Below are positions 17,288 to 63,867 of a stretch of 64,000 nucleotides of DNA, piece after piece. Position 1 is the stretch's first letter; the number at the start of each line of letters is the position of its first letter. Origin of the DNA: Dehalococcoidia bacterium (lineage in GTDB: Bacteria > Chloroflexota > Dehalococcoidia > Lucifugimonadales > JAGWBF01); NCBI GenBank assembly GCA_965220375.1, contig OZ244824.1, positions 200,406 through 264,405 of the forward strand. Direction: 5' to 3'. The position numbers were made by a program, and so were the translations under genes. A model generated the notes under the pieces. It searched no databases. It was not told the origin of the DNA and worked only from the letters and a program-made list of their open reading frames with translations.

Positions 17288-17324
17288 ATATTCAAGGCAA
17301 AACTACGGCAGTCTGTTCGCCCTG
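17288..17324. repeat. left half of a REP-like palindromic element, interrupted by the IS110-family insertion
   Basis: ATATTCAAGGCAAAACTACGGCAGTCTGTTCGCCCTG matches the reverse complement of the element tail at 47570-47600 (27 of 31). It also matches the forward units of the 62.3-kb array (AACTACGGCTGGCCGTTCGCCCTG). Confidence 0.8.
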
Positions 17325-17561
17325 GGAGAAGCAGATGGAACTCTGTGTCTCTTCTCAGTTGACCCAAACACCTCCCATTCGCCCTTGTATCTTAAAGAGG
17401 GACGTGACAGACCGCTTCGTCCTAGGCTTTGAAGGCCGTCCCTCAGCAGGGTCGTCACGTCCAGTCCCTCTCGGAGCCCGAACAGTTGACTGGGCAGTTG
17501 AGCCCGAATTAGGCAAGGATGGGCCAGAGTTGGGGAGAGTATCTTGAAGGGAGGTAGATGA
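17325..17561 (+). ncRNA. candidate IS110 bridge (guide) RNA in the 5' non-coding end
   Basis: The region is ORF-free. The stem GGACGTGAC (17400-17408) / GTCACGTCC (17454-17462) encloses a large internal loop. The loop's 3' side, TCCCTCAG (17439-17446), is the exact reverse complement of junction plus right flank CTGAGGGA (18525-18532). Its 5' side resembles the left flank. No folding or covariance analysis was possible here. Confidence 0.4.
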
Positions 17562-18509
<948 letters not shown>

Positions 18510-18527
18510 CTTTAAAGACAGTTGCTG

Positions 18528-18556
18528 AGGGAAATCAAAGAGTGAACGGACAGCCC
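18528..18556. repeat. right half of the REP-like element interrupted by the IS110-family insertion
   Basis: AGGGAAATCAAAGAGTGAACGGACAGCCC parallels CTGAGGCAAATCGAACGGTGAACGGACAGCC at 47551-47581. Confidence 0.75.
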
Positions 18557-18828
18557 GGACCTCAGTTTACGTGAAGATTTCCTTGGGGAATAAGTCAGTA
18601 TGGGGGTCGTCATTGCGGCGGAAGCCGCAATCCAGCGTCTCGCCCCCGGCCCATCTGCCCCAAAGGCACCGGGAGCAAGGCTGCCGGTTCCGTTTGCTTT
18701 CGGCGCATGGCTCCTCCGCCCGTAGGCAAACGGCACCGTGTCAGCCATTAGTTCACTTTCTTTGTTAGACGTGGGTCCCCGAGCAAGCGGAACCGCACAT
18801 GCAGTGTGGATGCATGTCGAGCCCTTTT

Positions 18829-19282: not shown

Positions 19283-19406
19283 AGGGGCACACGCCAAAAG
19301 CAAACGGAACCAAGCTACCCTCTCCCTAACCCCTCCCCCTGTACAGGCCCGGGAGCTGGGCAACACTTGTTCGGGGACATAGGCAACACATGTTCTGGGA
19401 CATGTG

Positions 19407-28067: not shown

Positions 28068-28130
28068 GGCTGTCCGTTCGCCCTGAGGTACTCGAAGGGG
28101 AACGGACAGCTGTAGTTGTGTCTTGAGTAT
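28068..28130. repeat. single complete REP-like palindromic unit
   Basis: GGCTGTCCGTTCGCCCTGAGGTACTCGAAGGGGAACGGACAGCTGTAGTTGTGTCTTGAGTAT. The arms GCTGTCCGTTC / GAACGGACAGC are perfectly complementary, and the tail is shared with 47570-47600. Confidence 0.85.
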
Positions 28131-44768: not shown

Positions 44769-47174
44769 CTAGTCCCCGGCCCGCATGCTCCTGCTGAACC
44801 TGCGGGCCGCCTTTGCCATGTCTCTCAGCCGCTGCTCTACCTTGGAGTGCAACGTGCCATCAGGATAGCCCTTCTCCTCCTGCCACTCCCCCGCAGGGAC
44901 CCCGGTCAGTATTTCCATCCCTTCATCCACCGTCGAGACGCCATAGATGCTGAAAGTACCCGCCTCGACTGCTTCGATCACCTCTTCGTTCAGCGCGAGG
45001 TGCTTCAGGTTATCCCTCGGGACGATGACGCCCTGCCCGTTGGTAAGCCCCCGACTTTGGCAGATGTCGAAGAAGCCTTCAATCTTCTGAGTCGCGCCGC
45101 CGATGGCTTGGATATCGCCGTTCTGGTTGACCGCGCCGGTGATGCCTATTCCCTGGGCGATGGGCAGGCCGGAGATGGCGGAGAGCAGTGCACACAGCTC
45201 AGCCGAGGAAGCACTATCGCCGTCCACCTCGCTGTAGCTCTGCTCGAAGCTTATGCTGGCAGAAAGAGACAAGGGCTTGTCGTAGCCATATTTGCCCCGC
45301 AGGTAGCCGGTCAGCACCATGAAACCCTTGTCATGTATCTTTCCACTCAACCGGATCTCTCGCTCGACGTTCACCAATTGGCCGCGTCCCAGGGAAACTC
45401 TTGCAGTGATTCGGCTGGGCTTCCCAAAGGCTGAAGCCCCAAAGCCCAGGACAGCCAGTGCATTTATCTGTCCAACCACTTCTCCTTCGGTGGAGATGCG
45501 GATGATGCGATCCTCGATCAGCTCCTGAAGCCTGTCCTCTCGAAGGCCGGAGCGGTACTTTCGCTGCTCTTCGGCCTTCTTGACATGTTCGCCCACCACC
45601 ACTTCTTCCCCGTACGTAGCCGCCCAGTAGTTAGCTTCCGTGATGATGTCCGAAACATCGTTGAAGCGAGTGGTCAGCTTTTCCTGGTGTTCGGCCAAGC
45701 GGCTGGAGTACTCAATGATGCGAGCTACCGCCGTCTTGTGAAAGGGCATCAGGCTTCCGCCGCGCTGCCTGGCCGATACAAAAGCCGCATACTTGTCCAC
45801 GTTCTCGGGAGTCCGGTCCATCACGGTGTCGAACTCAGCCCAGACCTTGAAGAGGCGGCGGAAATCTTCATCGGCGGACCGGAGGAGGCGAAGTGTGTCC
45901 GGGGTGCCCACGAGGACTATCTTGGCATCGACCGGGATAGGCTTGGGACGAAGGGTCGATGAGGGCAACGGGTTGTTCTGCTCCCCTATGTTCTCGATTC
46001 GCACCTCGCCGCTATTAAGCACACGCTTCAGGGTCTGCCAAGAGAGGGGATTGTCCAGCAGGTCCCGCGCCTGCAGGATCAGGTACCCTCCGTTGGCTTC
46101 ATGCAGCGCTCCAGCCTTGATCATCATGTGATCGGTGGTGAGCACACCCGACCGGGCCTCGTAGTCTATACGCCCGAACAGGTTGTAATAGGTAGGGTTG
46201 GGTTCGACGATTATGGGAGCGAACTGGCAGGTTATGTTGTCCAGCAAATAGTTGACCCTGTATCTCGCAAAAGCGCCGTCGCCCGGGTGCTCCCGCGCAG
46301 GGCCTTCGCTCTCGGTCTCCACCGGCTTGAACTGGTCGCAGTGCTCCACCATATTTTCTTGGACCAACCCCAGGTATGCGACCACGTCGGGGAATTCGGC
46401 ATACTTGTCCTTCAGGTCATCAAGCATGGGAGAGAGGACGGACCGAACAACCTCCCGGTCCACCCCAAACGATTCTTCCGCTGCCGCTTTGTCTAGGCGC
46501 CTCATGTCGGCAAGGATGTCCTTGACCTTCTGCATCAGCAGGTCGGAACGTCGAAGGATGTCCCCCCGCTCTTCCTCAGACAACCCGGACAACGTCTCAT
46601 TGGACAATGGCTGCCCATTGCGCAAGGGTAGCGGCGAAAAGCCGGCAGGCGTAGAGACCAGGGCAAACTCTGCCTCCCTCGCCATCATTTCGATACTGGC
46701 GGCCATCGCCTGCCGCTTTGCTTCCAGCCCCCGGAGCGCTTCCCCCGTACGCTTGGCATACTCTTGGCCCTCGAAGACCCGAAGAGAAGCCCGCCGAACT
46801 GAGGAGACCAGCTCATCCATATCCCCCGCCAGGATCTTAACCCAGCCGCAGGGGAGGGATATTGGTACAGGTTGAGAAAGGTCCTGGAAATTGTGGACAT
46901 AGCCCCAATGAAAGGGAGGAGGCCTTCGAGAAGCCACCTGTTCTACGATAAACCTCAATGCTGTGTTCCTGCCCGTGCCAGGGAGCCCAGAAATAAACAG
47001 GTTAAAACCCCTGTCCTGTATATTCAGCGCAAGCTCCAGGGCGCTCAGTGCCCGTTCCTGCCCAATCATATCCCCCAGCGGGGGCACTTCTTCCGTGGTG
47101 GTGAAGCTTAAGGTGTCGGGATCGCACCTGTTGTTCAGCAGGTGAGCAGGAACTTCGAGGTCTTCGATGCTCAC
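44769..47174 (-). CDS. Lon-like protease of the LonC/COG1067 type (degenerate AAA+ Walker A, Ser-Lys protease domain)
   Basis: 801 aa. The N-terminus has IGQERALSALELAL and FISGLPGTGRNT. The C-terminal Lon protease domain has DGDSASSAELCALLSA and IGGATQKIEGFF. Confidence 0.8.
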   Translation of the reverse strand: MSIEDLEVPAHLLNNRCDPDTLSFTTTEEVPPLGDMIGQERALSALELALNIQDRGFNLFISGLPGTGRNTALRFIVEQVASRRPPPFHWGYVHNFQDLSQPVPISLPCGWVKILAGDMDELVSSVRRASLRVFEGQEYAKRTGEALRGLEAKRQAMAASIEMMAREAEFALVSTPAGFSPLPLRNGQPLSNETLSGLSEEERGDILRRSDLLMQKVKDILADMRRLDKAAAEESFGVDREVVRSVLSPMLDDLKDKYAEFPDVVAYLGLVQENMVEHCDQFKPVETESEGPAREHPGDGAFARYRVNYLLDNITCQFAPIIVEPNPTYYNLFGRIDYEARSGVLTTDHMMIKAGALHEANGGYLILQARDLLDNPLSWQTLKRVLNSGEVRIENIGEQNNPLPSSTLRPKPIPVDAKIVLVGTPDTLRLLRSADEDFRRLFKVWAEFDTVMDRTPENVDKYAAFVSARQRGGSLMPFHKTAVARIIEYSSRLAEHQEKLTTRFNDVSDIITEANYWAATYGEEVVVGEHVKKAEEQRKYRSGLREDRLQELIEDRIIRISTEGEVVGQINALAVLGFGASAFGKPSRITARVSLGRGQLVNVEREIRLSGKIHDKGFMVLTGYLRGKYGYDKPLSLSASISFEQSYSEVDGDSASSAELCALLSAISGLPIAQGIGITGAVNQNGDIQAIGGATQKIEGFFDICQSRGLTNGQGVIVPRDNLKHLALNEEVIEAVEAGTFSIYGVSTVDEGMEILTGVPAGEWQEEKGYPDGTLHSKVEQRLRDMAKAARRFSRSMRAGD

Positions 47175-47410: not shown

Positions 47411-47600
47411 GGGCTGCCCTGAGGAAAATGCAGGGACCTGGGTCTCCCGTTCGCCCTGTCCCCATTTCCGTTCACCCTGCGGGAACTCGAAGGGTCTGAG
47501 ATCTCCGTTCGCCCTAAGGGAAATCTAAGGGCCCAGGACGCCCTTTCGCCCTGAGGCAAATCGAACGGTGAACGGACAGCCGTAGTTGTGCCTTGAACAT
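47411..47600. repeat. array of 4-5 degenerate direct REP-like half-units closed by one inverted arm and the conserved tail
   Basis: GGGCTGCCCTGAGGAAAATGCAGGGACCTGG / TCCCGTTCGCCCTG / TCCGTTCACCCTGCGGGAACTCGAAGGG / TCCGTTCGCCCTAAGGGAAATCTAAGGGCC / CCTTTCGCCCTGAGGCAAATCGAACGGT, then GAACGGACAGCCGTAGTTGTGCCTTGAACAT. Confidence 0.8.
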
Positions 47601-47934: not shown

Positions 47935-48897
47935 TTGGAGAGGGATGCGATGGGGCCCTTCGATGAGCTAAGGGTGTTCTCCGGCAATGCCCACCGACAG
48001 CTTGCCGAATCGGTGTGCGATTACCTGCATATCCCCTTGGGGCAGGCTGAAGTCTTCAAGTTCAGCAATGACAACACGTTTGTCCGCATCCAAGAAAACA
48101 TCCGTCAGCGAGATGTATTCATCGTGCAGCCGACCTGCTACCCGGTTAATGACCATCTGATGGAGCTCCTGATAATGATCGATGCCGCCAAACGGGCATC
48201 GGCAGGCCGGGTGACCGCCGTCGTCCCCCACTACGGATATGCGCGCACCGACAAGAAGGACCAGCCCAGGGTGCCCATAACGGCGCGGTTGGTTGCGGAC
48301 CTGCTTTCGGCGGCTGGCTGCGATCGCCTGCTCACAATCGACTTGCACGCGGGACAGATACAAGGCTTCTTTAATATCCCCGTAGATGAGCTGACCACCC
48401 TGCCCATCCTGGCGCGCTATTTTCAAGATAAGGGTCTGGACAATTTGGTCATCGTGGCTGTGGACATCGGGATCAGCAAGCGGGCCAGGGATATGGCCGA
48501 GTTGCTTCATGCTCCCTTAGCCATCGTCGAAAAACGGCGTACCGGCAACGACGATAAGGCAGAAATGCTTAACGTGATAGGCGATGTGGAGGGGAAGGTG
48601 GCCCTCACCTTCGATGATGAGATCGACACCGCCGGGTCACTGGTAACCGCGGCGAACGCCCTGATAGACCACGGGGTAACCAAGGTCTATTCGTGCGCTA
48701 CCCATCCCGTCTTCTCGGGGAACGCCCACGATCGCATCCTTTCCAGCCCCATGGAGGAGTTGGTCGTTACCGACACCATCCCGGTGTCCGAGACCGATAG
48801 GAACGGAAAGATAACTGTCCTCTCGGTTGCTCCCTTACTGGGTGAAGCAATTCGCCGCATCCACGAGGGCCTCTCCATTGGAGAGATGTTCAAGTAG
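47935..48897 (+). CDS. prs: ribose-phosphate pyrophosphokinase
   Basis: 320 aa. Motifs: LRVFSGNAH..LA, VIPYYGYARTDKK-type (VVPHYGYARTDKK), DLHAGQIQGFF and the PRPP-binding loop TFDDEIDTAGS. Confidence 0.92.
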   Translation: MERDAMGPFDELRVFSGNAHRQLAESVCDYLHIPLGQAEVFKFSNDNTFVRIQENIRQRDVFIVQPTCYPVNDHLMELLIMIDAAKRASAGRVTAVVPHYGYARTDKKDQPRVPITARLVADLLSAAGCDRLLTIDLHAGQIQGFFNIPVDELTTLPILARYFQDKGLDNLVIVAVDIGISKRARDMAELLHAPLAIVEKRRTGNDDKAEMLNVIGDVEGKVALTFDDEIDTAGSLVTAANALIDHGVTKVYSCATHPVFSGNAHDRILSSPMEELVVTDTIPVSETDRNGKITVLSVAPLLGEAIRRIHEGLSIGEMFK

Positions 48898-59835: not shown

Positions 59836-61041
59836 ATGTACAACCTGCTCCTCAGAGGCGGCACACTCATAGACGCAGCCCAAGGCTACACGGACAAGAA
59901 CGCCAGCTACGACGTCGCTGTCCAGGACGGGCGCATCGCCGCCATTGCTCCCAACATACTGCCTGAGGAAGCTACCAAGGTCGTGGATATTCCAGGGAAG
60001 ATGGTAACTCCCGGTCTCATCGACCTGCACACCCATGTGTTCGACGGCATCGCCAGCAACGGTGTAAACCCGGACCTAGGGGGCGTGCGGGCCGGCGTCA
60101 CCACCCTGGTGGATGCCGGCAGCTCAGGCAGCGCAACCTTCGGGGGCTTTCCCAGACACATCATTCCCAACTCCCACACCGAGATCCTCCCCTTCCTTCA
60201 TATCGCCCAGACGGGTCTCGCCACCACCCCGGACATCATCACCGAGGGGAGCATCGACTACGAGGGCACTCTTCGGGTGTTGGACCAGCATCGTGGGCTG
60301 ATCCGGGGAATCAAGGCCCGCATGGTATCCCCCGCCCTGGAGATATTTGGCATGGAGATGCCCAGGCTGGCAAAGCGGGCGGCTAAAGAGTTCGGCCTGC
60401 AGCTTATGGTGCACATCGGCGACACCGAGAAACGCTATGATGGCAACGTCATCCGAGAGCTGCTGCCCATCCTCGAAGAGGGCGATATAGTGACCCACTA
60501 CTTCACTGCCAACCCCGGCGGGGTACTGGATGCCAACGGCAAGCTGGTCCCCGAAGCTCGCGATGCGGTGGACCGGGGCGTATGGTTGGACACCGCCCAC
60601 GGCAGGATGAACTTCAGCTTTAATGTGGGTCAACGGTGCTTGGACCAGGGCCTAATGCCCCACTGCATCAGCACCGACCTGACAGTGCCGGGCCGCTTGA
60701 GGACGGTGCACAGCATGACGGAGATGATGACCCGCTTCCTGGGGCTGGGATTCACCCTGGAGCAGGTAATCACCATGTGCACAACCAATCCTGCAAAGGC
60801 CATCGGCGAGGCAGATCGCCTGGGAGCACTGGAAGTGGGAAGACAGGCGGACATCTCCGTCCTGGAGATAGTAGATGGCGACTGGATGGTCTATGATGTG
60901 CTGGGAGACTCGCTGCGGGTCGATAAGGCAGTGGTGCCGGCGCTGACCGTCAAGGACGGCAGGATGTTCGAGCCTGACTGGGGACCACGTCCCTGGGGAT
61001 GGCTGCCCGACGCCACCGATGATGCAAGGAGGACGGGGTGA
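59836..61041 (+). CDS. amidohydrolase / deacylase family metallohydrolase
   Basis: 401 aa. Motifs: LLRGGTLID, PGLIDLHTHVF (HxH), VHIGD, and a C-terminal GALEVGRQADISVLE. Confidence 0.75.
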   Translation: MYNLLLRGGTLIDAAQGYTDKNASYDVAVQDGRIAAIAPNILPEEATKVVDIPGKMVTPGLIDLHTHVFDGIASNGVNPDLGGVRAGVTTLVDAGSSGSATFGGFPRHIIPNSHTEILPFLHIAQTGLATTPDIITEGSIDYEGTLRVLDQHRGLIRGIKARMVSPALEIFGMEMPRLAKRAAKEFGLQLMVHIGDTEKRYDGNVIRELLPILEEGDIVTHYFTANPGGVLDANGKLVPEARDAVDRGVWLDTAHGRMNFSFNVGQRCLDQGLMPHCISTDLTVPGRLRTVHSMTEMMTRFLGLGFTLEQVITMCTTNPAKAIGEADRLGALEVGRQADISVLEIVDGDWMVYDVLGDSLRVDKAVVPALTVKDGRMFEPDWGPRPWGWLPDATDDARRTG

Positions 61042-62069
61042 AGTTCGGCAACTTTCTGTTCCCTGAAAGCCCTTCCAAGGATACGGACCACAGGCTGGTC
61101 TCCGAGGCCTTGGAGGAAGCCCAGCTTACCGACCAGCTCGGACTGGATGCGGTCTGGCTGGCGGAGCACCACTTCGACGGGGGATGCGTCTACGTGGACC
61201 CCACAACCTTCGCCTCCGCCATCGCGGTGACCACACAGCAAGTGAAGATCGGATTTGCCGTGGCCCAGACAGCCCTCCATCATCCCGTCAGGCTGGCGGA
61301 GCAGGTCGCCCTCCTGGACGTCCTGAGCCATGGGCGCATGATCGTGGGCCTTGGCAGGGGGACGGCCTACAACTGGTACGAATACAGAGGCTATGGCATA
61401 GACCCCCAGGAGGCCTACGAACGTCTGGACGAGACGGAAGAGATACTCTTCAGGATCTGGACGGCCAGCGATTATGAGCACATCGGGAAGTACTACCAGT
61501 TCAAGCTCCCGGAGCTGCGTCCCGGGGTTGTACAGCAGCCATATCCGCCCGTCATCAGGGGGGCATCAACCCTGGAATCGACCATGGAGATGGCTAGGCG
61601 GGGCAGGCCATTCCTGATGAACGTGCAGAACGTGGGAACCACAACCCAACGGCTGACAGCCTATAGAGACACCATGGCAGAGGCGGGTTTCGACGAGGAG
61701 GCCATTGACACGGCCGTGGACAACTGCTGGGTGTGGAGAAACGTTGTCGTGGCAGATACCGACGCCGAAGCTGAGCAGATCGGAGTGCCTGCCTTCCTGA
61801 CGATGCGGGCCAACCTGTCCGCAGCCCGGGAGAGGCTCAACCTGCCCACGGAAAGCATGCCGGCCACAGGGGCGGCCAGGGACTCGGTGGACCAGGGACT
61901 GATATGCGGCTCCCCCGAAACAGTGGCCGAGAAGATGGAGCAGGTGGTAAGCACGGGTGCCGGCGGGGTGATTATCCATTTCCGCCTTGGGCCGCTGCCA
62001 TGGGATGTGAATGCCCACAGCCTGGAGCTGTTCGCCAACAAGGTGGTCCCCCAGCTTCGCGGCGCCTGA
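61038..62069 (+). CDS. LLM-class (luciferase-like) flavin-dependent oxidoreductase
   Basis: 343 aa. It begins MKFGNFLFPES.. and has LGLDAVWLAEHHF and GRMIVGLGRG. The start overlaps the upstream stop. Confidence 0.8.
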   Translation: MKFGNFLFPESPSKDTDHRLVSEALEEAQLTDQLGLDAVWLAEHHFDGGCVYVDPTTFASAIAVTTQQVKIGFAVAQTALHHPVRLAEQVALLDVLSHGRMIVGLGRGTAYNWYEYRGYGIDPQEAYERLDETEEILFRIWTASDYEHIGKYYQFKLPELRPGVVQQPYPPVIRGASTLESTMEMARRGRPFLMNVQNVGTTTQRLTAYRDTMAEAGFDEEAIDTAVDNCWVWRNVVVADTDAEAEQIGVPAFLTMRANLSAARERLNLPTESMPATGAARDSVDQGLICGSPETVAEKMEQVVSTGAGGVIIHFRLGPLPWDVNAHSLELFANKVVPQLRGA

Positions 62070-62260
62070 GCCGTTCCATTACGGCCACCAAGCCGGTCCC
62101 TCGCCTTAGCCCCCTTCTTGAGGGGAAAGTTCGCACAAACCTCCGTCATTGTGGCCTCACTGGCATCCGGGGACATCACCCTAACCCCAACCCCTCTCCC
62201 GCAACGGGACACTTGCTCAACGCCCCGGACAAAACATGACGCTGTGGCGAGAAGGGCAAT

Positions 62261-62870
62261 ATCCAACAACTACGGCTGGCCGTTCGCCTTGAAGGAAATC
62301 CAAGGCCTGGGCTGGCCGTTCGCTCCAACTAGGGCTGGCCGTTCGCCCTGAGGAAATCCAAGGGCCTGTGCTGACCGTTCGCTCCAACTACCGCTGGCCG
62401 TTCGCTCCAACTAGGGCTGGTCGTTCGCCCTGAGGAAAATCCAAGGCCCTGGGCTGACCGTTCGCCCCAACTACGGCTAGCCGTTCGCCCTGAGGAAATC
62501 CAAGGGCCTGTGCTGGCCGTTCGCTCCAACTAGGGCTGACCGTTCGCCCCAACCTGGGCTGGCCGTTCGCCTTGAAGGAAATCCAAGGCCTGGGCTGGCC
62601 GTTCGCTCCAACTAGGGCTGGCCGTTCGCCCTGAGGAAATCCAAGGGCCTGTGCTGACCGTTCGCTCCAACTACCGCTGGCCGTTCGCTCCAACTAGGGC
62701 TGGTCGTTCGCCCTGAGGAAAATCCAAGGCCCTGGGCTGACCGTTCGCCCCAACTACGGCTAGCCGTTCGCCCTGAGGAAATCCAAGGGCCTGTGCTGGC
62801 CGTTCGCTCCAACTAGGGCTGACCGTTCGCCCTGAGGAAACTTGAAGGGGAACGGCCAGCCCAGGGCCCA
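62261..62870. repeat. tandem array of 20 direct REP-like half-units (core GCTGRCCGTTCGC) with two alternating spacer classes, closed by a single inverted arm GAACGGCCAGC; contains a perfect 283-bp duplication
   Basis: Parsed by hand. Long units are core plus CTGAGGAAATCCAAGGGCCTG-type (~37 nt). Short units are core plus CCAACTAGG-type (~23 nt). The order is L S L S S L S L S S, repeated twice. The array lies between convergent genes. Confidence 0.9.
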
Positions 62871-62922
62871 GGTTATTCTAAGGTTTCCAAGAAGAGATGG
62901 GGGCTGCGATGGCGGAGGAACA

Positions 62923-63867
62923 TTAGCTCCCCTTCTTCCGTCCAGAGGCCTTGAGCTTTCGCAGCAGCATCGACATTCGGCGGCGGGCTGAAGGCCTCCT
63001 TCGCCGAAGGTTCGCCGCCACAGATGGCACTACCAGCGAGTCCCCGGCCAGCACGGGAAGGCCCCATTTGCGCAGCTCCTTGAAGGTGGGGGCGCCCCCC
63101 CCTTCCCAGCCTGTCACCAGAGCGGGCGGCTCCTGCCAGGTGCGGCGGCCCCTGGGCCTGACCATGGCCCGGCCACCTGCCTCGGGCACGATTAGCATCC
63201 CGGCTGCTACATCCCACAGCTTGGGGCCGCCAAAGAGGGCGTACTGCAGCGACCCCAAGGCTACCAAGGCCATCTCGTAGGCTATGCTTCCTGTTACGCG
63301 AGGCTCGCCCGCTCTCTTGTGAAGCCCTCCGGTGAATCGGAAGCCCTGCCCAAAGGATCCCGGCAGGCCGCTGAGACGGTTGGGGTTGGGCCCCTCGCGC
63401 GAGCTTATCGTCAAGGGCTCTCCGTCGATCCGGCATCCCCCGCCTCTATGCGCATGAAGGACAACCCCACCGGACGCGTTGGGCCACGGTACGAAGATGG
63501 ACGAGGCCACGGGAACACCCTTGTGCAGGACCGCAATGGAGACGGCATATACGGGCAGCCCGTTCAGGAAATTGGTGGTGCCGTCCAGGGGGTCCAGCAC
63601 CCAAAGATAGTCGGAGGACACAGCATCGTCCCCGTCCGTGTCCTCCTCGCCCAGCACCGCATGATCAGGGAAGCTGGAGGAGATTCCTTCCTTGAGAAGC
63701 TGCTGGCTGTCCTTGTCCGCAGAGGTTACGGGGTCCAGCTCTTTGGCCTTGTCCTTGTACTCCACATCCTGGACCTTCCCGAAGCGCTCCCGGAGCAGGG
63801 CGCCTGCCTTCCTCGCCAGCTCCGCGGAGGCGGCCTCCAGCCGTTGCAGAAGGGAGTGATCGTCCAT
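62923..63867 (-). CDS. inositol monophosphatase family protein with basic C-terminal extension
   Basis: 314 aa. Motifs: DPVTSADKDS, AVLGEE, WVLDPLDGTTNF and WDVAAG. The last ~35 aa (LRRRRPSARRRMSMLLRKLKASGRKKGS) extend beyond the usual fold. Confidence 0.8.
   Translation of the reverse strand: MDDHSLLQRLEAASAELARKAGALLRERFGKVQDVEYKDKAKELDPVTSADKDSQQLLKEGISSSFPDHAVLGEEDTDGDDAVSSDYLWVLDPLDGTTNFLNGLPVYAVSIAVLHKGVPVASSIFVPWPNASGGVVLHAHRGGGCRIDGEPLTISSREGPNPNRLSGLPGSFGQGFRFTGGLHKRAGEPRVTGSIAYEMALVALGSLQYALFGGPKLWDVAAGMLIVPEAGGRAMVRPRGRRTWQEPPALVTGWEGGGAPTFKELRKWGLPVLAGDSLVVPSVAANLRRRRPSARRRMSMLLRKLKASGRKKGS

Follow-up and report, generated by a model that had tools for sequence, protein, structure and literature searches.

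Here, we describe a tandem array of repeats at 62267..62860 (+ strand) of a 64,000-nt stretch of contig OZ244824.1 from a Dehalococcoidia bacterium. In the following, this whole stretch is called the window, and all coordinates are window positions. Repeat, motif and spacing analysis resolves the array into 19 one-armed units and a closing hairpin unit. The units are made of parts of a repetitive extragenic palindromic (REP) family that has further loci in the window, and their number differs between close relatives of the same species. We favour, with a probability of roughly two thirds, the explanation that the array is a REP-derived minisatellite, i.e., a variable-number tandem repeat (VNTR), composed of REP segments that lack the right arm and were amplified locally.

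Architecture of the array and its relation to a REP family

The core motif GCTRRYCGTTCGC has 20 matches in the window, all on the + strand and located within 62275-62830, where 100 dinucleotide shuffles lead to an expected count of none. Neighbouring cores are spaced by 23 nt (11 times), 36 nt (six times) or 37 nt (twice). A sole inverted arm, GAACGGCCAGC, is found at 62850-62860 (13-mer match at 62848(-)). Read along the array, the arms thus yield 20 '+' followed by one '-', which is not the inverted doublet of a REPIN. The array is situated between two convergent genes, a luciferase-like (LLM-class) monooxygenase upstream (61038..62069, + strand; Pfam PF00296, E 1.6e-54) and a member of the inositol monophosphatase (IMPase) family downstream (62923..63867, - strand; Pfam PF00459, E 4.6e-52), whose stops at 62069 and 62923 leave a gap of 853 nt. 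This is in full agreement with the initial annotation of the locus, which had described 20 direct cores with two spacer types, closed by a single inverted arm, in a convergent-gene gap of this length.

Two types of unit can be distinguished. The short unit (S) consists of the core and (T/C)CCAACTA(G/C)(G/C) and comprises 23 nt, while the long unit (L) consists of the core and CCTGAGGAAATCCAAGGGCCTG(T/G) or close variants and comprises 36/37 nt. They are arranged in the order LSLSS LSLSS, then LSLSS LSLS plus the closing unit. Tandem Repeats Finder (TRF) reports a period of 283 bp with 2.0 copies and 100% match, with nested periods of 142 (89% match), 82, 59 and 23. Block 1 (62275..62549, + strand; units 1-10, L S L S S L S L S S) also has its units in the alleles L001 and L003 described below, and block 2 (62558..62832, + strand; units 11-20) is a perfect copy of it over the initial 275 nt of the 283-bp block. 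While cores, arm and spacers had been recognised before, this higher-order structure had been missed.

Unit 20 and the inverted arm together form a complete REP hairpin (62818..62860, + strand) of 43 nt, with left arm GCTGACCGTTC, loop GCCCTGAGGAAACTTGAAGGG and right arm GAACGGCCAGC, which folds as DNA with -15.1 kcal/mol (z -4.5). In units 1-19 the partner arm is missing, and a palindrome is found in the closing unit and in the REP family only. The initial annotation had further described a small spacer hairpin kept despite sequence change. The respective stems, GCCTTG/CAAGGC and GCCCT/AGGGC, do exist in the long spacers, but their folding energies of -4.7 and -4.5 kcal/mol are at the level of shuffled sequences (z about 0), and neither units 6/16 nor the Ld variant of the other strains retain the stem (-1.9 and -3.1 kcal/mol). 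The seemingly compensatory variant is one set of mutations that was copied by duplication.

The complete array does not fold better than shuffles as DNA of the + strand (z -0.3), and does so mildly as RNA of the - strand (z -2.7), the latter because of the single inverted arm. Given these values, a role as structured RNA was rejected. A search of the whole window with Rfam at gathering thresholds gave no match. Open reading frames (ORFs) on the minus strand inside the array (e.g., 62388-62693) were dismissed for two reasons: the period of 283 nt is not divisible by 3, and sister species lack the sequence. The array does not resemble a CRISPR- or TIGR-type guide array either: it has just two spacer types, both of them conserved and derived from REP flank or loop.

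A canonical single member of the REP family is located at 28069..28118 (+ strand). It reads GCTGTCCGTTC-G-CCCTGAGGTACTCGAAGGG-GAACGGACAGC-TGTAGTTG, i.e., a complete hairpin with a G bulge in the stem and a TGTAGTTG tail, and folds as DNA with -17.0 kcal/mol (z -6.0). A full element comprises a 5' flank, the 11-nt left arm GCTGNCCGTTC, the loop GCCCTGAGG..AAGGG, the right arm GAACGGNCAGC and the tail CGTAGTTG. In these terms, the long unit of the array is the left arm, the loop and the CCTGG-type flank of the next arm with the right arm omitted, and the short unit is a tail-type flank (TCCAACTA[CG]G, also present directly before unit 1) plus the left arm. Arm, loop and both flank types were all found in complete members of the family (28069-28118, 47570-47588, and ~47 loci in relatives). 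We can thus confirm the earlier proposal that one arm of a REP-type palindrome, which has other occurrences in the window, supplied the building blocks of the array. The same holds for the observation that short spacer plus core equal the reverse complement of the tail seen at another locus, with one mismatch between CAACTACGGCTGGCCGTTC and 47570-47588.

The family has four loci in the 64-kb window. Its distribution in other genomes was determined by scanning the GTDB representative genomes with the exact 20-mer GCTGNCCGTTCGCCCTGAGG. This yielded 58 loci, ~47 of which stem from six long-read Dehalococcoidia metagenome-assembled genomes (MAGs) and none from the window's own species; the latter is covered in this study by the 64 kb of this genome and ~20 kb from two other strains. 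Four loci in the window and ~47 in six related genomes constitute the dispersed extragenic distribution expected of REPs. Most copies in the relatives occur as single hairpins whose loop may face either way, often with CCTGG or NTAG-type flanks before the left arm and with CGTAGTTG after the right arm. The 5' flanks of ~80 arms in GCCCTGAGG orientation include CCTAG (7), CTAGG (6), ACTAG (4), CTTAG (3) and CGTAG (3), which, as far as can be judged from these sequences, appears as a tendency towards NTAG and not as a fixed GTAG.

Two further observations concern the family at large. REP-like hairpins with the same arm and loop (GCTGCCCGTTCGCCCTGAGGTATCGAAGGGTGAACGGGC and similar) are present in L030 at 7832, L056 at 7172/7432 (Pseudomarimonas salicorniae) and L028 at 2878 (a Burkholderiales MAG), where L numbers denote the retrieved loci. 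The similarity of this REP family thus extends across phyla, into Proteobacteria. A second palindromic repeat family, TCGTCATTGCGGCG..GCCGCAATCCAG, was observed at 18607-18635 of the window and in L008, L009, L015, L018, L019 and L061. It often adjoins the first REP family, and the two give rise to mosaics in relatives that resemble bacterial interspersed mosaic elements (BIMEs), e.g., a 132-nt tandem composite in L061.

Strain alleles, sister species and smaller arrays

Other assemblies of the locus were retrieved by exact-protein look-up of both flanking genes. L001/L004, a circular contig of 2.64 Mb with 37x coverage (ERZ25072076), carries 26 cores in a gap of 1044 nt, and L003, a contig of 66 kb with 11x coverage (ERZ25067264), carries 14 cores in a gap of 724 nt. 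The flanks of L001 and L003 are ~98% identical to the window, whose allele has 20 cores. Hence, the comparison of copy numbers between strains, for which the initial annotation had called, gives 14, 20 and 26 cores. Units 1-10 are common to all three alleles save for point variants (TACC/TACG, CCTGG/CCAGG). The L001 allele equals the L003 allele plus an 11-unit tandem duplication (319 bp), and the window allele lacks one La unit as well as five consecutive units towards the 3' end. In L003, the last short unit and the closing hairpin are inverted as a block. The arm variant bases moved with this block, which places the crossovers in the outer portion of the 17-nt inverted repeat CCCTGGGCTGNCCGTTC.

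It is hardly credible that the tandem structure or its copy number was created by the assembler. The 283-bp duplication is perfect, and the contig names suggest a minimizer-graph long-read assembler, able to mis-traverse tandem loops, both of which would fit such an artefact. However, three independent assemblies from different samples share units 1-10 and both flanks and yet differ by point variants at the unit level and by the inversion. The array is 0.6-0.8 kb in size, which is far below the length of long reads, and three short-read contigs terminate exactly at its edges, as a real repeat would cause. An artefact of a single contig is refuted by the two other long-read assemblies that hold the array with the same ten initial units. 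The array is a genuine copy-number-variable locus, with counts taken from assemblies.

Synteny of the gene pair with its neighbours extends to five sister species, where the IMPase is 80-84% identical; IMPase homologues at ~50% identity are labelled SAR202/Chloroflexi. In L065, L108 and L109, which include the closest relative (L108, 84%), the orthologous gap has 30 nt and no REP. In L066 and L067, a single complete REP is found in the gap, with another small palindromic module before it. In the window, the gap also contains ~200 nt of decayed mosaic sequence left of the array. This non-array part of the insertion (62070..62266, + strand) is absent from the 30-nt gap of the three species and includes a CCCCTTCTTGAGGGG hairpin (62111-62125) and a possible decayed copy of the second palindrome family (62145-62168; likeness judged by eye). 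Since the gap of the sister species has either 30 nt without REP or a single REP, the array and the decayed mosaic are a recent, lineage-specific and dispensable addition. The single REPs of L066 and L067 are orthologous and have their loops in opposite orientation. Together with the inverted terminal block of L003, this shows frequent flipping between inverted arms.

One-armed arrays are not confined to this locus. A second, decayed array of the same REP family is located at 47413..47588 (+ strand) between the divergent genes 44769-47174 (-) and 47935-48897 (+), and consists of ~5 degenerate left-arm/loop units, one right arm GAACGGACAGC and the tail CGTAGTTG. Among the relatives, L041 has two half units and a closing hairpin with a period of 36, and L031 shows the mirror image, a hairpin followed by three [loop + right arm] units with a period of 40. 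L058, L064, L016 and L007 carry 2-4 [flank + left arm + loop] units with periods of ~50-125 nt, and L038 and L020 have stuttered loops. In L018 and L061 we found direct tandems of complete hairpins mixed with the second palindrome family, which are BIME-like mosaics. The largest one-armed run across the six related genomes has ~4 arms, compared to 14-26 at the window locus. The one-armed architecture recurs, and only the size of the window array is unique, in good agreement with the exceptional expansion claimed for it before. JGI metagenome contigs were additionally scanned for two direct cores 8-26 nt apart, and all 40 resulting loci turned out to be unrelated (coding repeats with multiple-of-3 periods and other tandem repeats).

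Origin of the array and alternative explanations

The process we favour would start with the insertion of one REP-type palindrome between the two convergent genes. Short illegitimate duplications or slippage would then have generated two direct unit types without right arm, namely [tail-type flank + left arm] of 23 nt and [left arm + loop + CCTGG-type flank] of 36/37 nt. The loop end AAGGG overlaps the GGGCCTGG flank. Because both unit types share the 13-nt core, blocks of 59/82, then 142, then 283 nt could be shuffled and amplified by homology-driven unequal exchange or replication slippage. The same process would still alter the copy number between strains, and recombination between the inverted arms would flip the terminal segment. 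The right arm would survive only once because only segments without it were amplified.

The nested periods and the two identical 275-nt stretches point to successive block duplications and not to unit-by-unit addition. Taken together with the perfect block duplication, the in-register gains and losses between strains and the inversion, the nested periods argue for homology-driven unequal exchange or slippage, and this is the mechanism we infer. The initial duplications without right arm probably arose by illegitimate slippage. With its head-to-tail repeats, TRF periods of 23-283 nt and a copy number that is polymorphic between close relatives (at the level of assemblies), the array has the properties of a VNTR or minisatellite. 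We consider it to be, most likely, neutral or selfish DNA that serves no required function at the locus.

Some points weigh against this explanation. The copy numbers are assembly counts, and graph-based long-read assemblers can miscount tandem loops. Arrays without one arm recur across the family, which hints at a directed process over random duplication, and it is not obvious how slippage alone would leave out the right arm in every case. Moreover, neutrality is deduced from the absence of the array in relatives, and the view of such arrays in this genome is confined to 64 kb, plus ~20 kb from two other strains.

A directed process could be provided by a REP-associated Y1/HUH transposase (RAYT), an origin already considered in the initial annotation. 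A TnpA_REP-like enzyme would bind the closing hairpin and cut single-stranded DNA at an upstream C|T, and strand transfer would add units without right arm. TnpA_REP of E. coli binds functional REPs and cleaves C|T up to >400 nt away, and local tandem amplification of BIMEs by strand transfer has been proposed (PMC3333891). The imperfect stem with its G bulge and the frequent NTAG directly 5' of the left arm (CCTAG, ACTAG, CTTAG, CGTAG) would suit such an enzyme, and so would the fact that every one-armed array is attached to one complete hairpin, which could serve as anchor. The tetranucleotide, however, is not a clean GTAG, and the perfect 10-unit block duplication with its 5-unit sub-blocks fits homology-driven exchange better than enzymatic addition of units. 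A regular expression for the HUH/Y motif, applied to six-frame ORFs of 0.61 Mb, found no Y1 transposase; its two matches were spurious frames. tblastn with E. coli RayT and IS608 TnpA, extended to the loci retrieved later, gave no match in the ~0.8 Mb sampled. All in all, we regard an origin by RAYT activity as unlikely.

The other enzyme to be considered belongs to an IS110-family insertion sequence (IS) at 17386..18524 (+ strand; Pfam PF01548 + PF02371; junctions compared across 4 copies), with its transposase gene at 17562-18509 (+ strand). It is inserted at the CT of a REP loop of the same family. By sequence comparison, the left side of the target (17301..17385, + strand) comprises AACTACG plus a left-arm half-site at 17301-17324 and a second half-site, CATTCGCC-CT, at 17376-17385, which abuts the IS. 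The right half of the split REP (18525..18555, + strand) is CT-GAGGGAAATCAAAGAGT followed by the right arm GAACGGACAGCC. In the window, L016, L044 and L058 the junctions read ...CGTTCG(C/T)C-CT|TGTAT...ACAGTTG|CT-GAG... The left non-coding end (17386-17561, + strand) holds a putative bridge RNA with guides at 17410-17423 and 17438-17450, as suggested by a consensus fold with 7 compensatory pairs among the four copies. An internal loop is surrounded by a conserved stem, for which L058 has 4 compensatory pairs. The left side of the putative loop, GCTTCGTCCT, reads like the left target plus the CT core, and CCCTCAG on the right side corresponds to CT + GAGGG in reverse complement. Guide and target covary in L044, where the guide GGCTCAG occurs with the flank CTGAGCC. 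The target-binding loop of the IS621 bridge RNA has the same architecture (PMC11208160). The position at a CT core in a REP and the non-coding RNA at the left end with matching internal-loop guides are shared with the REP-targeting elements IS621, ISPpu9 and ISPpu10 (PMC11208160, PMC12288879, PMC1525189); this likeness concerns the REP family, while the units of the array are near-cognate, unoccupied sites.

Three side observations were made at this element. The Rfam family sX15 (RF02234, a Xanthomonadaceae small RNA) matches 17386-17549 (-) over its full length (1-159 of 159) with E 1.2e-6 and 48.8 bits, a value that stays under the gathering score of 55. The match begins exactly at the left end of the IS110 element, on the strand opposite to the transposase, and going by this coincidence sX15 itself may be an IS110 left-end (bridge-RNA) region. 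The 58-nt piece 17328-17385 was considered as remnant of an IS end and rejected, as its local alignment score is at the level of shuffles. At 19359-19403, near the IS110/REP locus, a 23-nt unit GGCAACACATGTTCGGGGACATA occurs twice (90% match).

The initial annotation had suggested the array as a bank of landing sites for this element. The units would then be multiplied bridge-RNA targets, i.e., a safe harbour, or would have been made by the recombinase itself through CT-to-CT excision and reinsertion, target against target. All four copies examined indeed sit at left arm plus loop start (...CGTTCG(C/T)C-CT|IS|CT-GAG...), the putative guides match the REP, with the covariation in L044 and the IS621-like architecture mentioned above, and the sub-periods of the array, 59 and 82 nt, recur as CT-to-CT distances between long units. 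The copy in L058 is inserted in a unit of a one-armed array, and half-REPs are therefore usable as IS110 targets. The fit to the window array is poorer. Its long units read CGTTCGCC-CT-GAGGA, compared to guides TTCGTC-CT and CT-GAGGG, so that the left side differs at one G-U-compatible position and the right side has one mismatch. The CT core is present in six long units and the closing unit (7/20), each with GAGGA instead of GAGGG, and two La units as well as all 11 short units are poor targets or none. No IS insertion was found in the array in any of the three alleles, and the inversion breakpoints of L003 are away from the CT core. In IS110 recombination, donor-donor events have been reported and target-against-target events have not (bioRxiv 10.64898/2026.08.31.748434). 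Insertion of IS110 elements into REPs is well known (PMC1525189, PMC12288879) and needs no array. Thus, the element is linked to the REP family as suggested, but its causal connection with the array, as landing-site bank or as product, is very doubtful.

A functional cis-element would be either a protein-binding array of the iteron, IHF or gyrase-like kind, or a structure that serves convergent transcripts as 3' end or insulator. Elsewhere, REPs and BIMEs serve as binding sites for IHF, gyrase and Pol I and have a stabilising effect on mRNA 3' ends (PMC3333891), and the closing hairpin is located 63 nt past the stop codon of the minus-strand gene. Nevertheless, sister species with the same gene pair manage with a 30-nt gap (three) or a single REP (two), and the number of copies ranges from 14 to 26 within one species. 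The one-armed units fold at the level of shuffles, and no consensus sites for promoters or terminators were found in 61900-63100. The core spacing had been called iteron-like before, a description we cannot uphold: distances of 23/36/37 nt are irregular and keep no constant helical phase, the flanking genes are metabolic with no replication gene among them, and the array is absent from sister species. A function of this kind is highly improbable.

The most far-reaching variant would combine the enzymatic proposals. One-armed REP arrays would be the regular product of a site-specific enzyme, either a RAYT at CT sites or the IS110 bridge recombinase acting target with target, that works from a single complete hairpin, and the half-sites would constitute a renewable safe harbour for the REP-targeting IS110. 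We consider this quite unlikely. If true, it would represent a mechanism of enzyme-driven minisatellite formation in bacteria.

Comparison with known repeat systems and biological meaning

Bacterial VNTRs or minisatellites such as MIRU are intergenic head-to-tail repeats of some tens of nucleotides that are polymorphic between strains through slippage or unequal exchange. The REP-derived minisatellite is alike in these respects and differs in its origin from a family of dispersed palindromic repeats, in its two intermingled unit types and in the hairpin at its end. The NIMEs of Neisseria, in which dRS3 repeats flank RS units, are intergenic mosaics with a recurring short repeat that is the target of IS110/Piv-type recombinases. 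They share this feature with the present locus, but repeats and organisation differ, and the likeness is one by description only.

The closest parallels are found in REP clusters themselves. The BIME-2 and atypical BIME arrays of E. coli are intergenic, too, and consist of REP palindromes with short linkers that show local tandem amplification, near-identical copies per locus and a strain-variable number (PMC3333891), just as the window array occurs in tandem with 14, 20 or 26 cores. However, E. coli BIMEs alternate REP and inverted REP, joined by linkers, with both sets of arms in each unit, whereas here 19 of the 20 units have the left arm only, in one orientation, and a single right arm closes the array. 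An associated RAYT was not found for the window array in the ~0.8 Mb sampled. The tandem REPIN clusters of Pseudomonas fluorescens SBW25 likewise are ordered tandem repeats of a REP unit including its flanks (PMC3116915). They are more frequent than expected by chance, and a separate mechanism of cluster formation was suggested (PMC3116915). Their units are complete REPINs, each with two inverted REPs, and the largest cluster comprises 4 REPINs or 12 REPs (PMC3116915), in contrast to half-REPs of 23-37 nt in 14-26 copies with higher-order structure in our case. Since locally amplified, strain-variable clusters of REPs, BIMEs and REPINs have been described (PMC3333891, PMC3116915), the earlier statement that no described element has this architecture went too far. 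What is new relative to them is an amplified unit without the second arm. The array takes a known process to an extreme without constituting a new class of element, and by itself demonstrates no new biology.

Apart from the array, the strains differ in an island beside an N6/N4 DNA methyltransferase just past the 3' end of the window (L001 17872-20394 versus L003 3141-5144). One strain has an Mrr_cat-like protein, a 147-aa reverse-transcriptase fragment and a BglII-type endonuclease, and the other has a 53-aa ORF and two ORFs without Pfam match (228 and 219 aa).

From a practical point of view, the array is usable as a strain-typing marker. It breaks short-read assemblies, and long-read assemblies may miscount its copies. 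From a biological point of view, it shows what can become of REP-type palindromes in this uncultured lineage of Dehalococcoidia: one arm is lost, and the remainder grows into a long minisatellite that varies between strains. The array is a natural test case for the amplification of REP clusters, an issue not yet settled for BIMEs and REPINs. Together with an IS110 element that has this very REP as the target of its putative bridge RNA, it makes up a compact system for the RNA-guided use of repeat families as landing sites by insertion sequences.

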